IMG/VR virus record: IMGVR_UViG_3300049141_000098
Location: 32,001-96,000 of that record
DNA: 64,000 nt
Reading direction: 5' to 3' (one strand)
DNA from: a virus
Taxonomy: Duplodnaviria > Caudoviricetes
Below the pieces are notes generated by a model. The model worked only from the letters and a program-made list of their open reading frames with translations. It did not search any database and was not told the origin of the DNA. The translations under genes were made by a program, and so were the position numbers. This document shows, in pieces, positions 18,413-64,000 of the stretch (position 1 is its first letter; each line of letters opens with the position of its first letter).

Positions 18413-19129
18413 TCACAACTGCAAGAACACCAGCAGCGCGTTCGCTGCCAGGGAGACGCCGATGGCGGGCCCCTTCTCCCGCGAAGAGCCGGAGGTCACC
18501 GCCCGGCCTAACAGCCGAATGCTCCACCAGCGTTTGCCCTGGATGGGGATGGGCCAGAAGGCGGGCACGCCGCCCTTCGTGCAAGCGTCGGCCACGATGT
18601 GACTCAGGTAGCCCCCCGCAGCAGCAAGTGCCATCAGCCATGGATTCAGCAGGAGTGCGCTTCCCGCAGCCGTCATTGCGGCGCCGATCACGACCAAACC
18701 GGCCGCCCCTCGATGTAGGGGTCGGAGCAGGAAGACGCCAAACGCAGCCGCGAGTGCAGCGGTGATGGGGCCAGCGAAGGTCAGAATGTAGGCCATCACG
18801 CCAACCATCAAGCTGGCAGCAATGGTGTGGGTGAGGGTGCGGTGGTAGGGATCCCTCCATCGTCTCGCCCGAGCCCACTCGATGGAGGCCAGATCGCGGT
18901 GTGTTCCGGTGCTGCGGTACACCCCCGAGCACACTTTGTGAACGACCTTGTGGGCAGCACCCCCAAGTGCCCGGTCGGCCGCCGCGTTGCGGCAGTCGAT
19001 GTCGGGAAGCAGAGAGTATCCGGCGGATACCGCCGCCATCGCGACACCCTGAAAGATCGTTACGTGTTGCGTAATGACAAGACCAATCGGTGTCGACGCC
19101 CCGATTGCCGCGTGCACAGACCCTTTCAC
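18413..19129 (-). CDS. Membrane-bound metal-dependent hydrolase (YdjM-like)
   Basis: GSVH, SLLPDID, HRTLTH, GYLSHIVAD..T.GGVP motifs and several TM helices. Start uncertain. Confidence 0.8.
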   Translation of the reverse strand: MKGSVHAAIGASTPIGLVITQHVTIFQGVAMAAVSAGYSLLPDIDCRNAAADRALGGAAHKVVHKVCSGVYRSTGTHRDLASIEWARARRWRDPYHRTLTHTIAASLMVGVMAYILTFAGPITAALAAAFGVFLLRPLHRGAAGLVVIGAAMTAAGSALLLNPWLMALAAAGGYLSHIVADACTKGGVPAFWPIPIQGKRWWSIRLLGRAVTSGSSREKGPAIGVSLAANALLVFLQL

Positions 19130-19366
19130 CCCAACACCTGCCGCTTCAGCGTGGCCTCCTCCTGTGTTGCCCGAGATGGTGAGGTGCAGCATGGAGTCCA
19201 TCGCCCTTCCTTGGCGCGCCAGCCGCGACCGAGGCACCAGGGGCACGGCCGACCCCTCCGGCAGTTCGCGCAGAAGGATCGGGTGCTCTTTATGGCGGTG
19301 CAGCCGTCACAGTCCGATTCGGGTGGGCTGATGCTTGTGTATCGGACGGCGCTCTGTTCGCTCACG

Positions 19367-19684
19367 TCAGTTCCCCCAGCCGTTTCCGTCGAGCACTGTG
19401 TAAACCTCTTTCCGATATCCGAGGGCGACTATCGACTTGCCTGGAATGAAGATCACTCGCAGTTTGTCGTGGGCAACTTTCCATGGGAGTGCGCCGAAGC
19501 GACCACGCGTGGCCTGGCCGTTGGTCATTCGAACGCTCCCCCGGGGCGTCTCCCCTGTCAAGATTTGATCAACCAGTCTCTGAATCCGCTTGGCTGCCTG
19601 CGCGTCAGTCTTGTGAAGCTTCTTCAAAGCTCGTCTTGCAACCGGCTCAATCTCAACCCTTGCAGCCACACCCGTTCCTGACAC
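19367..19684 (-). CDS. RelE/ParE-like toxin
   Basis: VEIEPVARRALKKL...RIQRLVDQI...PRG...LRVIF...VALGYRKEVY matches the RelE-fold pattern. Confidence 0.65.
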   Translation of the reverse strand: MSGTGVAARVEIEPVARRALKKLHKTDAQAAKRIQRLVDQILTGETPRGSVRMTNGQATRGRFGALPWKVAHDKLRVIFIPGKSIVALGYRKEVYTVLDGNGWGN

Positions 19685-61026: not shown

Positions 61027-61038
61027 GACTTGCCTCCC

Positions 61039-64000
61039 CTAGCTGTACAGCCTGAGTACGTCACCGACGGGCAGAACGGGGATGTTGCGCGCCTTTATCG
61101 CATCCATGATCGCGTTGAAGTCTGTCTGCGAACATTGGTTTGTGGTGGTCACCGCACCCGTGACGATCTCGTGGAATGTCAGAATCGTCCACGAGCCGTC
61201 CAACTGGCATCGGTCGAGTGCACCACCGGCACCGATGAGATTCGCCGGAAGACCCTTCGCTGACGCTCCGGCAAGGGCTCCGATTCCCGTGATGGAGCGC
61301 ATGCGGAGTGGCATCGCCGGAGGGAAGGTCTCCAGGTTGTCGGCGGAGGATATGCCGCGTCCTGAGGAGAAGTACCTGCAAGTCATCCCCTCAATTGAGA
61401 CCCCGTCGGTGGTCTGTGAGAACCATCCTCCGGGGTAAGCGAAGGAGTCCCCCCTGAAGCCGTTGTTCACCATCCACGCACGCATGCGCCGGATGTCGGT
61501 CTCTACCACCTCGGCTGTCAGCGTGTGGTATTTCGCATTGTGGTTGGCGGATCCGTAGGCGTGCCCAGCGACCTCCCAACCCGACAGATTCTCCACGGAC
61601 TTGAGCTGCGAGAGGTCCAGGTACTGGTTGGCGCCTATGTTCTCCGCAATGGTGTACAGGGTGCCCCGGTATCCCAGTGTGTCCATTTTGGGACGCCCAA
61701 GAGTGTACGGACTGGCGTACGAGTCATCAAAGGTGATGCTGACGACACCCTCGGGGAAAGTTTCAGTCGTGTCATTGATGAATTCGACCGCCTGGAGATG
61801 AACCGTCACCGGGTTAGCGGTGTTGTCATCAACGACCTGGAACATAAAGTCCGTGAAGCCGGAGGTGGCACTCGGAGCGCCGGTGGAGGAGATTGAGTAG
61901 GACCCGGTAGCCGATCGGACATCGGCCCAACTCAGGGTCATGGTGACCCATTCACCGCTCAATACCTGATTTTCGGCGATTGCTGCGTGAGTATGCAGTC
62001 GCCAGTTGAAAGTGTTCGCTACTGTCGAGCTTCCGAGGATCACGTTGATTTGATTCAGGTGCGTCACGTCCGACACACGGAAGACCAGCCGGATCGCCTT
62101 GCCGGTCAAATCGGGCAGTGCGCTCGCGAGGCGGCGAATGTTGGCAACTGCCCCTGTTCCTGTCGTGGTGATACGGAAACTCTGCGTCCCTTTGCAAAAT
62201 ACGGCCGTGTCGTTCGCGTTCGACGATCCGATGCCGGATCCACTGGCGCTCCAGCCGTGGCCGGTCTGGAAGATCTGCGACCAGGAGGCAGGACGCCAGG
62301 CGGGCAGTCGTGTGGCGGGGGTGGTCGCCTGAAACAGGAGCTGGCTCGCGGAGACCTTGCCGCCTGCATCCAGTGACGCAACGCCGCCGTTCGCACCTTT
62401 TTCCGCCTCGGGGATGGCGCCCACATTGGCCGCGTCGAGGGTGACATCGGGGCCTTCCTCCCCGTTCACCGTCCATACGGCTGGCGACCCGGGCGTGGAG
62501 GTGTCGGATATCAGACCCACGGCGTCCAGAGCCTGCAAGAGGCTCGTCAGGGCGTCGCCGGTGGAGCGGTCACCAACCACCTCCTGCTGGTCGACCGGGG
62601 TCGCGCCGTGGAAGCCAAGCTGGTTCGCCTCGCCGTCCAGGGTGTGCACGGCGGCGCCGGAGGAGGTGCCGGAGAAAACCCACTTACCCACGGCGTGAGC
62701 GAGCTGAGTGGCAGCCTCCAGTCGGAGGTAGGTGCGCTGAGTCCCCGCGAGGTTGACCAATTCATAGACCGACAGATGCAGGTCGGCGCCGGACCCTTCG
62801 AGGTCGAGCGCCCCACCGGACTGGCGCAGCCGAAATGATTTCGAATCCTCCTGACCCACCAACAGGTCGGTCCCGAGGAACGCGAGAACTCCTGTAGCGA
62901 TCCTGCGCAGCTCGGCGTCTGGCGGGGCGGAACCATCACCCCACTGCTGCGTGCCGTCGGACAGCCTGCGAAAACGATCCTGGGTGTCGGTCGTGACCCG
63001 GGAGTACTGAGCGAGATTGTCGGCCTCAGCCATGCGCGTGCCGATGGCGCCGGTGAACTCGGCTCCGGCGAGCTGGGCATACTCGCTGAGGTCGACGTTG
63101 CCGCCTCCCCCGCCCGCTCCCCCGCCGCTGCCGAACTTGCCTGCCTTGACAATTTTCGCCTGAGCCTTGTCGGCGAGGTCGGTGGCTGCCGCCTCGGCCG
63201 CGAGGTAGCCGAGGAGCACGGCATTGCCGGGAAGGGTGGGGTTGAGTGCGAACGATGCTGTGCCGATCCCCGCGATGGCGTCATCCAGCGTGCCGAAGGT
63301 CTGCTGGCCGTACTGGAGGACGTGGATCTCGGCGCCGTTGCTGGTGGGGAACATCCAGAGCTGGTGCAGGACCGACTCGGTGCTTCCGACGGGCGTGAGG
63401 ACGCCGTTGTTGTCGTAGTGGCCGACATCGACCGTCGCCGTCGCCGCAGAGGGGACGATTTCCGAGTTGCGCAGGACGTGCACCCAGGAGGCCGGGGTGG
63501 CGCCGATGGTGGAGACGATGTTCGGGTTGTTGGTCTGGACCGTGCCATCGAAGTGGTTCCAGCCCCGGCTGAACACCTGGCCCGGGGCGCAGTTGAGCGT
63601 CAGGGATCCGGGGACAGGGGTGATGTCGTTGCCCGTGAGAGCGAAGGCGCCGAGCGCGTCGAGCAGGTCGTAGAGCTGATTGACCGGCTGTTCGACCACA
63701 GTGGCCAGCGACTGGGTCAGAAAAATCGTGCCGCCCTCCTGGGCGACCATTCCGAGCACCAGGAAGTTGCGTCGATCCTCCGGGGAGGGTCGGGCGGCCT
63801 GCTGGTACACCGTTCCGTCGGCGTCCATGAGCAGCCAGGTGATAGCTCGCGTCTGGGATACGGAGTCCAGCTCGACGGTTGTGACGGTGGAGGTGCTGAT
63901 CTCGGTGATAGTCACCGGAGAGGTCAGATAGTCAACGATGTAGCCGTGCAATGGGCTCACGTCGACTGCCAGCGGATTGCTCTCGTTCGGATTGATGTCA
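61039..64000 (-). CDS. Tail protein with C-terminal NodB-type polysaccharide deacetylase (N-terminus beyond window)
   Basis: Frame open to the window edge; fibre motif TVNG..G.VTLDAANVGA...EKGANGGVASLD..GKV; SITFDD, EVAGH, FAYPGG, ILTFH. Confidence 0.8.
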   Translation of the reverse strand, partial: DINPNESNPLAVDVSPLHGYIVDYLTSPVTITEISTSTVTTVELDSVSQTRAITWLLMDADGTVYQQAARPSPEDRRNFLVLGMVAQEGGTIFLTQSLATVVEQPVNQLYDLLDALGAFALTGNDITPVPGSLTLNCAPGQVFSRGWNHFDGTVQTNNPNIVSTIGATPASWVHVLRNSEIVPSAATATVDVGHYDNNGVLTPVGSTESVLHQLWMFPTSNGAEIHVLQYGQQTFGTLDDAIAGIGTASFALNPTLPGNAVLLGYLAAEAAATDLADKAQAKIVKAGKFGSGGGAGGGGGNVDLSEYAQLAGAEFTGAIGTRMAEADNLAQYSRVTTDTQDRFRRLSDGTQQWGDGSAPPDAELRRIATGVLAFLGTDLLVGQEDSKSFRLRQSGGALDLEGSGADLHLSVYELVNLAGTQRTYLRLEAATQLAHAVGKWVFSGTSSGAAVHTLDGEANQLGFHGATPVDQQEVVGDRSTGDALTSLLQALDAVGLISDTSTPGSPAVWTVNGEEGPDVTLDAANVGAIPEAEKGANGGVASLDAGGKVSASQLLFQATTPATRLPAWRPASWSQIFQTGHGWSASGSGIGSSNANDTAVFCKGTQSFRITTTGTGAVANIRRLASALPDLTGKAIRLVFRVSDVTHLNQINVILGSSTVANTFNWRLHTHAAIAENQVLSGEWVTMTLSWADVRSATGSYSISSTGAPSATSGFTDFMFQVVDDNTANPVTVHLQAVEFINDTTETFPEGVVSITFDDSYASPYTLGRPKMDTLGYRGTLYTIAENIGANQYLDLSQLKSVENLSGWEVAGHAYGSANHNAKYHTLTAEVVETDIRRMRAWMVNNGFRGDSFAYPGGWFSQTTDGVSIEGMTCRYFSSGRGISSADNLETFPPAMPLRMRSITGIGALAGASAKGLPANLIGAGGALDRCQLDGSWTILTFHEIVTGAVTTTNQCSQTDFNAIMDAIKARNIPVLPVGDVLRLYS

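Follow-up and report, generated by a model that had tools for sequence, protein, structure and literature searches.

The window considered here is a stretch of 64,000 nucleotides, bases 32001-96000 of the 259,646-bp IMG/VR contig IMGVR_UViG_3300049141_000098, in which a ParA-type partition cassette shares a replicon with the virion and lysis genes of a tailed phage. The same stretch carries an FtsK/Tra-like DNA motor, a GntR-type regulator and several membrane proteins. An earlier reading of the letters alone (the original prediction) had taken these together as a large phage-plasmid of Streptomyces that spreads both by hyphal conjugation and as virions. Its core, one replicon with a complete virion module and plasmid-type partition, is upheld by the analysis described here, and its conjugation is not. 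Coordinates are those of the window unless marked as genome, and 426 genes were called across the contig with a codon-bias model.

A complete jumbo phage genome related to cluster BM

The contig closes on itself, its first 127 bases recurring as its last 127 (an end overlap of 127 bp). It is listed in IMG/VR as a virus record with direct terminal repeats and a CheckV completeness estimate of 100%, and its GC content is about 63% along the whole length. A megablast search found no DNA match in the plasmid collection (PLSDB); among phages it returned patchy identity of about 76% to the Streptomyces phages EhyElimayoE, Satis, Kradal, Kela, Quantum and JustBecause, with genomes of about 186 kb.

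Satis and JustBecause are the founders of actinobacteriophage cluster BM, siphoviruses with very long prolate heads (PMC6687918). EhyElimayoE, a cultured BM phage isolated on S. lividans, is matched by 184 of the 426 genes (43%) at a mean amino acid identity of 53% and in conserved order (tblastn, E<1e-5); cluster membership is drawn at about 35% or more common gene content, a pham-based criterion that the tblastn figure of 43% approximates. The head genes, which the original prediction had proposed to seek in the rest of the contig, are all present, with identities to EhyElimayoE of 79% for the terminase, 85% for the portal, 71% for the capsid protease and 89% for the major capsid protein. 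They are accompanied by the major tail protein (92%), the tape measure protein (76% over a partial match) and minor tail proteins (64-86%), giving 64-92% for the virion module as a whole. Inside the window, the endolysin-holin cassette and tail proteins that had been recognised from the letters are confirmed by family matches:

34576..36117, + strand: lysis cassette, endolysin g075 (Amidase_2 and LysM) and holin g076 (Pfam; PHROG endolysin 5e-72, holin 2e-31)
56977..64000, - strand: g114, minor tail protein with beta-helix, HylP and glycine-rich domains, and g115, tail fiber (Pfam; PHROG 11699, 2e-97, and 16641, 8e-66, respectively)

The tail fiber gene g115 runs past the end of the window to 64728, and g114 and g115 are jointly the counterpart of EhyElimayoE gp155, a protein of 2111 residues (tblastn).

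Because the virion, packaging and lysis gene set is complete and gene order is conserved with the BM phages (the contig is collinear with EhyElimayoE), the contig is neither a defective remnant that lacks head genes nor a chimeric assembly, two outcomes that the original prediction had allowed for. On gene content and gene order, the window is part of a complete 259.6-kb jumbo tailed Streptomyces phage genome related to cluster BM. The likeness to that cluster (Satis, JustBecause, Kradal, Kela, EhyElimayoE; PMC6687918) covers a collinear genome with virion, replication and lysis genes in common, and takes in an FtsK-like translocase, a GntR regulator, a membrane-protein block, a Ro60-like gene and a giant tail-fibre gene. 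The contig is, however, about 73 kb larger and is known from the sequence of an uncultured phage. It also adds a cassette of ParA, partner and palindromes, a Xer-like recombinase, a full-length DnaE, an AcrVA2-like gene, a sugar-modification cassette and many small genes.

Further relatives come from IMG/VR, namely G002 (a 59-kb fragment) and G003 (251 kb, complete), and from assemblies of bacterial isolates. Scaffold NZ_JANCLX010000014.1 of S. cucumeris NEAU-Y11, located through a search with the major capsid protein, is 185,382 bp long with 62.3% GC and is likewise self-closing with a 127-bp overlap; 193 of the 426 contig proteins match it and, among the matches listed, the order is collinear. 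A contig of 252,977 bp from Streptomyces sp. NPDC058947 encodes homologues of the window proteins g080 (79%) and g064 (59%), 15 locus tags apart.

The partition cassette

Downstream of the lysis genes lie the following features:

36215..37287, + strand: g077 and g078, small membrane-anchored proteins, with collagen repeats in g078 (present in the S. cucumeris scaffold and G002, not in EhyElimayoE)
37438..38334, + strand: g079, ParA-type partition ATPase (Pfam CbiA and MipZ; PHROG 164 ParA-like, 8e-20; 59% to its homologue on plasmid pZL1)
38334..39245, + strand: g080, ParA partner and putative centromere-binding protein (its start overlaps the parA stop; 52% to the homologue neighbouring parA on pZL1)
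39210..39267, unstranded: two perfect 24-nt direct repeats, 34 bp apart, each with the 16-bp palindrome TGTATCGCGCGATACA (repeat finding; putative parS-type centromere)
39887..39902, unstranded: third copy of TGTATCGCGCGATACA, with one mismatch
39913..41091, - strand: g082, AcrVA2-like (anti-CRISPR family) protein, flanked by copies of TGTATCGCGCGATACA (ESM Atlas 0.98; structural TM 0.58)
41129..41144, unstranded: fourth copy of TGTATCGCGCGATACA, perfect, upstream of g082 (an equivalent copy lies past g082 in G002)

The ParA system named in the original prediction is found as g079, with a deviant Walker A motif (KGGTGKT, residues 27-33), together with the partner g080 and the adjacent palindromes. 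The NCBIfam ParA_partition model matches g079 at 5e-17, under its cut-off. The partner has no match in Pfam, PHROG or NCBIfam, and no ParB_N domain occurs anywhere in the contig. An AlphaFold2 model of g080 has a confident helical core whose best PDB match scores Z 7.7, to generic helical bundles (Spo0J, Z 5.2), and neither Foldseek against the PDB nor the wide search in VIA gave a convincing match for the fold.

The palindrome is confined to this neighbourhood. In 259.6 kb there are four copies only, three perfect and one with a single mismatch, all within 2 kb beside the cassette, and a terminator hairpin at 39270-39297 follows the repeat pair. pZL1, G002 and G003 all have TGTATCGCGCGATACA, unchanged, beside their g080 homologues, and yet the proteins are no more than 52-79% identical; because the site has stayed identical while the adjacent proteins diverged, a functional centromere is argued for, and the palindrome cluster is a putative centromere of the parS type.

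The nearest ParA to g079 is encoded by plasmid pZL1 of Streptomyces sp. 14R-10 (NC_023316; 59%), with a homologue of g080 (52%) directly after it. The pZL1 cassette has the same gene order and is then followed by TGTATCGCGCGATACA twice, about 35 bp apart. The plasmid differs from the contig in being typed as conjugative (MOBF/MPF_T, MOB-suite), and the 17-kb stretch compared has no further gene matching the contig, save one short fragment. The g079-g080 pair is conserved in pZL1, G002, G003 and NPDC058947, and in G002 and G003 it stands at the equivalent genome position with the identical palindrome. Remoter homologues of g080 occur on contigs of about 42-190 kb from many Streptomyces isolates. 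By its gene order, homologues and site, this is a genuine plasmid-type partition cassette.

Among phages the cassette is restricted. Neither g079 nor g080 has a homologue in any Streptomyces phage of the phage collection, and the entire g077-g084 block is missing from EhyElimayoE (tblastn). In the S. cucumeris scaffold the homologue of g082 (77%) adjoins that of g078, so that the par cassette of the contig is an insertion between these two genes. A role as replication initiator was ruled out for g082, which lies between palindromes, since the protein is AcrVA2-like.

A recombinase and relatives in bacterial isolates

The absence of an integrase noted in the original prediction holds for the window; elsewhere the contig carries a tyrosine recombinase:

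genome 239185-240291, outside the window: tyrosine recombinase with Phage_integrase and SAM-like N-terminal domains

Its best family matches are XerC, XerA and XerD, all under their cut-offs, and it is about 26% identical to annotated integrases of Gordonia and Arthrobacter phages. Homologues occur in G003 (54%) and the S. cucumeris scaffold (58%), and in no Streptomyces phage record of the phage collection. No large serine recombinase was found in the contig.

An integrating temperate phage, whose genome enters the host chromosome through this enzyme and for which the ParA cassette is an accessory, would suit the domain content, the similarity to annotated integrases and the IMG/VR 'provirus' flag on G002. 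Such integration is disfavoured because the S. cucumeris element is a separate self-closing scaffold, unjoined to the chromosome, and because G002 keeps the phage gene order right up to both ends and contains no host genes, for which reason its flag was rejected. The Xer-type best matches of the recombinase also speak against integration, as does the observation that parABS and integration are usually alternatives in actinophages (PMC7157519), and the integrating phage is an improbable reading.

In place of the g079-g080 cassette, the S. cucumeris scaffold has another ParA (33%) and another partner (25%); after them comes a different palindrome in two copies, also 34 bp apart, and this cassette sits beside the GntR gene. 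With two different cassettes at two sites, partition genes seem to have been gained at least twice in the lineage. Every relative of the sublineage examined has a par cassette, and the recombinase is present in the three complete genomes. Two relatives from bacterial isolate assemblies carry par genes, whereas the free-phage BM isolates are without par and recombinase.

A candidate immunity repressor is encoded by g149 (genome 117353-117961, - strand, 202 residues), a Cro/CI-type helix-turn-helix protein divergent from g150 and missing from EhyElimayoE.

A probable plasmid-like prophage and its main rival

These features are best explained by a jumbo phage-plasmid, a virion-making relative of the BM phages that persists as a partitioned, low-copy extrachromosomal prophage with a Xer-like enzyme resolving its dimers; the probability of this reading is put at roughly 55%. 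The genes are in place, the site is conserved, and relatives occur as self-closing contigs in isolate assemblies. After infection, the genome would close into a circle and be kept at low copy number outside the chromosome. There the partner g080 would bind the TGTATCGCGCGATACA palindromes and ParA would segregate the copies along the hyphae, while the Xer-like recombinase would resolve dimers by analogy with P1-type systems. We infer lysogeny, like binding, segregation and dimer resolution, from the genes and from precedents, which are pZL12/pSLE1 (PMC4487206), the parABS actinophages (PMC7157519) and the jumbo plasmid-prophage pBtic235 (PMC9700832).

Several points weigh against a plasmid-like prophage. 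The circular assembly is equally compatible with a terminally redundant linear genome, and BM phages have terminal repeats of about 1 kb (PMC6687918). Non-temperate jumbo phages can persist in cultures and show up in isolate assemblies (bioRxiv 10.1101/2024.12.31.630880). A search, not an exhaustive one, brought up no replication initiator of plasmid type, and no conserved repressor was identified, since only the C-terminal half of g149 is kept in G003 and none of it in the S. cucumeris scaffold. The partner g080 has no recognisable DNA-binding family or fold in the family libraries or the PDB structure search. Finally, the lineage is present in only 1 of the 401 Streptomyces species genomes sampled.

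Much of this fits the main rival, a strictly non-temperate jumbo phage in which ParA positions or distributes replicating DNA during lytic or persistent infection, the recombinase resolves concatemers and the isolate assemblies represent a carrier state. Assemblies of bacterial isolates commonly contain virulent jumbo phages that persist (bioRxiv 10.1101/2024.12.31.630880), and rarity in the sampled genomes, together with the failure of the (not exhaustive) search for a conserved repressor or a plasmid replication initiator, is as a virulent phage would have it. In the same direction point the AcrVA2-like identity of g082, which is flanked by palindromes and is no initiator, the closest cultured relatives, which are without annotated lysogeny genes, and the existence of ParA-like genes in some large phages such as Tunturi_5. 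The cassette, however, is of the type found on large Streptomyces plasmids, with a palindrome conserved from plasmid to phage; two different cassettes were gained at two sites in the lineage; par and recombinase genes go with the isolate-borne relatives and are missing from the free-phage ones; and the persistent phages of bioRxiv 10.1101/2024.12.31.630880 had no ParA. The strictly non-temperate phage thus stands as the foremost competitor of the plasmid-like prophage, though a rather unlikely one.

A motor, membrane proteins and a regulator of plasmid type

The conjugative part of the original prediction was built on a second set of genes, which lie to both sides of the partition cassette:

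20274..21511, - strand: g054 (NlpC/P60 peptidase) and g055 (SLT lytic transglycosylase) (Pfam NLPC_P60 1e-26, SLT 9e-10)
21674..23436, - strand: g056 and g057, membrane proteins divergent from g058 (two predicted hydrophobic segments each; in all relatives)
23600..23685, + strand: promoter-like block upstream of g058, nearly invariant in an alignment of four genomes, with -35-like TTGACT and -10-like CACAAT, ending in the palindrome GGCCTAGGCC
23686..24420, + strand: g058, GntR/HutC-type regulator (winged helix-turn-helix and UTRA domains) of the KorA/TraR subfamily (Pfam GntR 5e-8, UTRA 5e-14)
26974..28089, - strand: g064, membrane protein, probable distant relative of the SpdB type (SpdB_N; ESM Atlas, PF27080 hits in orthologues)
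28866..30212, - strand: g066, membrane protein (two hydrophobic segments; conserved in relatives)
51149..51459, - strand: tRNA-Arg(tcg) and tRNA-Met(cat), downstream of g103 (ARAGORN)
51646..52947, - strand: g103, soluble FtsK/SpoIIIE-type motor with Walker A GTSGSGKS and a modelled C-terminal winged helix (PHROG 17958 'FtsK/SpoIIIE-like protein', 4e-48)

The motor domain announced as a TraB-like FtsK ATPase is indeed homologous to the plasmid proteins, and the part of those proteins that would anchor it is missing. By blastp, g103 is 31% identical to the Tra protein of pIJ101 (E=1.6e-42), in an alignment restricted to Tra residues 189-565, and 35% identical to a Tra of an S. californicus plasmid; the Pfam FtsK_SpoIIIE match falls below its cut-off. 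The pIJ101 gene that it matches adjoins korA, spdA and spdB and is, we take it, tra/kilA. The N-terminal 190 or so residues of plasmid Tra are absent from g103, and a simple hydrophobicity scan finds no hydrophobic segment in it, whereas plasmid Tra proteins have one at about residues 156-175; the open reading frame has room for only four extra codons upstream. A C-terminal winged helix is assigned from the structure model, in which residues 377-433 adopt the order H-H-H-E-E with a pLDDT (predicted local distance difference test) of 81-91, and from a weak Pfam match to a winged helix-turn-helix at 382-431. The model of the whole protein has a pLDDT of 49, and a PDB sequence search returned one marginal FtsK match (E=0.09). 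Homologues of g103 are labelled 'FtsK-like DNA translocase' in 20 Streptomyces phage records, 57-kb phages included, and the FtsK-like genes of such phages are already in the literature, without an assigned role.

Among the membrane proteins, the Spd-like character seen in the original prediction is retained for g064 alone, and there indirectly. In the ESM Atlas it lies closest to clusters of SpdB families (score 0.87, a lead-level score only, with 180 features in common), its hhalign probability against pIJ101 SpdB is 17-25%, and 5 of its 16 orthologues carry a precomputed PF27080 SpdB_N hit, g064's own cluster being without one; because of these three indications, g064 is accepted as a probable distant SpdB-type protein. 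A blastp search with pIJ101 SpdA, SpdB and KilB and two DUF2637 proteins against the 426 predicted proteins gave nothing significant, and hhalign of six membrane-protein families against SpdA, SpdB, KilB and DUF2637 targets gave only the g064 match to SpdB. No similarity to Spd proteins was found for g056 and g057 (blastp, hhalign), which, like g066, have no family match in Pfam, PHROG or NCBIfam. The two peptidoglycan hydrolases g054 and g055 have one N-terminal hydrophobic segment each and form the distal part of a leftward operon beginning at g057; their homologues are EhyElimayoE gp96 and gp97 (76-77%), and they also occur in the S. cucumeris scaffold.

The GntR regulator of the original prediction is g058, with GntR and UTRA domains. 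It is 27% identical to pIJ101 KorA (blastp 1e-16), the usual level within the subfamily, and 68% identical to its EhyElimayoE homologue, gp101. The phage has at least three GntR-type regulators, the others being g385 (325 residues, L017:14504-15481, + strand) and g086 (141 residues, 42389-42814, - strand).

The palindrome at the end of the g058 promoter is itself a recurrent element. The 10-bp GGCCTAGGCC occurs in 20 copies in the contig and its 8-bp core in 22, where about 1 would be expected. Of the 22 core sites, 21 lie between genes, and the palindrome often stands beside a TTGAC -35-like element. Sites lie at window positions 295, 7452, 21553, 23498, 23654, 28153, 32754, 47902, 55819 and 59482, with 12 more in the contig; the copy in the g058 promoter is inside a block of about 60 bp that is almost invariant across four genomes. 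Taken together, the sites look like a phage-wide promoter/operator regulon. Because its promoter bears this genome-wide motif, g058 is suggested to be a general phage regulator.

Conjugation or a phage function in the mycelium

On the conjugative reading, motor, Spd-like proteins and regulator work together as a Streptomyces-type system for the transfer of double-stranded DNA, and the element spreads by mating as well as in virions. It is not without grounds. In the plasmid collection the only homologues of g103 are the Tra proteins of small (7-16 kb) conjugative Streptomyces plasmids, pIJ101 among them, and g103 retains the modelled winged helix; g064 is SpdB_N-like, g058 belongs to the KorA/TraR subfamily, and the peptidoglycan hydrolases lie beside membrane genes. 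There is also an experimental precedent in pZL12, as cited in PMC3583192.

TraB function centres on membrane insertion and pore formation (PMC3583192, PMC4447253), and it is here, with the loss of about 190 N-terminal residues and the hydrophobic segment and with four possible upstream codons, that g103 departs from the plasmid proteins. Nor is a clt-like repeat cluster found by the motor gene: in the 500-700 bp around g103, neither the contig nor G003 has an 8-mer in three or more copies, a search that a divergent site could escape, and no k-mer near g103 is both clustered and recurrent across five relatives, the conserved blocks being a promoter-like motif and a hairpin stem. The recognition motif of pSVH1 TraB, GACCCGGA (PMC5133688), has 42 copies in the contig, dispersed and with no strand bias. 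The genes are scattered, g103 at 51.6 kb lying 24-28 kb from g058 (23.7 kb) and g064 (27 kb) with about 40 unrelated genes between, and the promoter of g058 carries a genome-wide motif suggestive of a general phage regulator. Moreover g103, g058, g057, g064 and g066 all have homologues in EhyElimayoE, which has no ParA, partner or recombinase. Because the motor has no anchor, the searches found no clt-like site beside it, and the genes are scattered and have homologues in EhyElimayoE, conjugation is unsupported, and spread by mating is a long shot.

The comparison with the TraB/Tra-Spd system of pIJ101 and pSVH1 (PMC4447253, PMC5133688) is thus one of parts. Common to both are a homologous motor domain with its C-terminal winged helix, a regulator of the GntR/HutC family and, more tentatively, a membrane protein resembling SpdB_N, whereas in the contig the motor is unanchored, no clt was found, the genes are spread over 30 kb instead of lying in one kor-controlled operon, and there are no SpdA or KilB homologues. 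The motor, the SpdB-like protein and the regulator belong to the ancestral core of the BM lineage, and their distant origin is probably the transfer and spread toolkit of Streptomyces plasmids. Rather than in conjugation of the plasmid kind, they more likely act in the phage's infection cycle within a mycelial host.

One such role can be imagined for BM phages at large, lytic and plasmid-like alike. The motor, the candidate pore protein g064, the membrane proteins and the two hydrolases would pump phage DNA through hyphal cross-walls and so infect adjacent compartments without virions, the phage counterpart of 'spreading' by plasmids. In the sublineage that has ParA, pumping of this kind could extend to transfer from hypha to hypha. 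The proposal is speculative and, on present evidence, doubtful.

A hairpin with stem GGCCGGACCCGG lies at 53304-53339, between g105 and g104 and upstream of g103. The stem is kept in all five relatives and, of the 8 bases in the TraB motif of pSVH1, contains 7. This is one isolated site, though, and the hairpin may be no more than a terminator.

Other genes of the window and contig

Replication is represented in the window by a polymerase gene:

3805..7398, - strand: g030, DnaE-type DNA polymerase III alpha, full length, 1197 residues (Pfam PHP, DNA_pol3_alpha, finger, HHH_6 and OB domains, E down to 9e-91)

That the element carries its own DnaE had been claimed for the interval 18413-64000; the gene is full length and falls outside that interval. 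It has no tblastn match in EhyElimayoE or the S. cucumeris scaffold.

At the left end of the window, g027 (297-2144, - strand, 615 residues) aligns with the EhyElimayoE exonuclease of the Cas4 family along just 26% of its length. This partial match, with weak LAGLIDADG/Hom_end hits in the middle of the protein, suggests an intein inserted in a Cas4-family exonuclease. A Ro60/Rsr-like RNA-binding protein is encoded by g101 (48411-50018, - strand; PHROG 850, 8e-42), and next to it the stretch 50100-50600 is gene-poor and has several imperfect direct and inverted repeats; it could encode Y-RNA-like partners. A sugar-modification cassette at genome 3958-8541 sits in the tail module and is mostly missing from EhyElimayoE. 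Its genes, for a GT28 glycosyltransferase, a DegT-type aminotransferase, an ATP-grasp ligase and an NDP-sugar dehydratase, may serve to glycosylate virion proteins.

Known phage-plasmids and significance

Phage-plasmids in Streptomyces, such as pZL12, and jumbo plasmid-prophages in Bacillus are already known. According to PMC3583192 and PMC4487206, which cite Zhong et al. 2010, pZL12/pSLE1 is a Streptomyces element that likewise combines virion and plasmid partition genes, and tra-dependent transfer is reported for pZL12 as well. As described there, it differs in being unrelated and far smaller (pSLE1, 86 kb), with a canonical ParA/ParB pair and a functional membrane Tra, whereas the motor of the contig is shortened. 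The parABS prophages of cluster A mycobacteriophages and Gordonia phages (PMC7157519) resemble the contig in that a partition cassette is found in some members only and in a ParA distantly homologous to g079 (about 28%). Their genomes are about 50 kb, parABS replaces the integrase and ParB is of recognised families, whereas the contig has both a partner without ParB_N and a recombinase. The closest in size is pBtic235 (PMC9700832), an extrachromosomal prophage of more than 200 kb; its host is the Firmicute Bacillus thuringiensis and its phage lineage is unrelated, and the comparable maintenance of the contig is a prediction.

What is new is the partition cassette that the contig has in common with pZL1, together with the Xer-like recombinase outside the window. 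The cassette joins ParA to a partner from no recognised family and to a 16-bp site conserved without change, and many large Streptomyces plasmids carry it. The partner g080 is a directly testable candidate for a new centromere-binding protein, and the cassette a possible stabiliser for Streptomyces vectors. With a shortened Tra-like motor and an SpdB-like protein present across the phage lineage, culturable relatives offer a test of the suggestion by Thoma et al. 2015 that the spreading functions of plasmids are borrowed by phages. If the phage-plasmid reading is true, this lifestyle would be extended to the prolate-headed BM phages and to genomes of up to 260 kb, and it suggests that a lytic-only phage may become a plasmid-like prophage by gaining a small partition cassette from resident plasmids.

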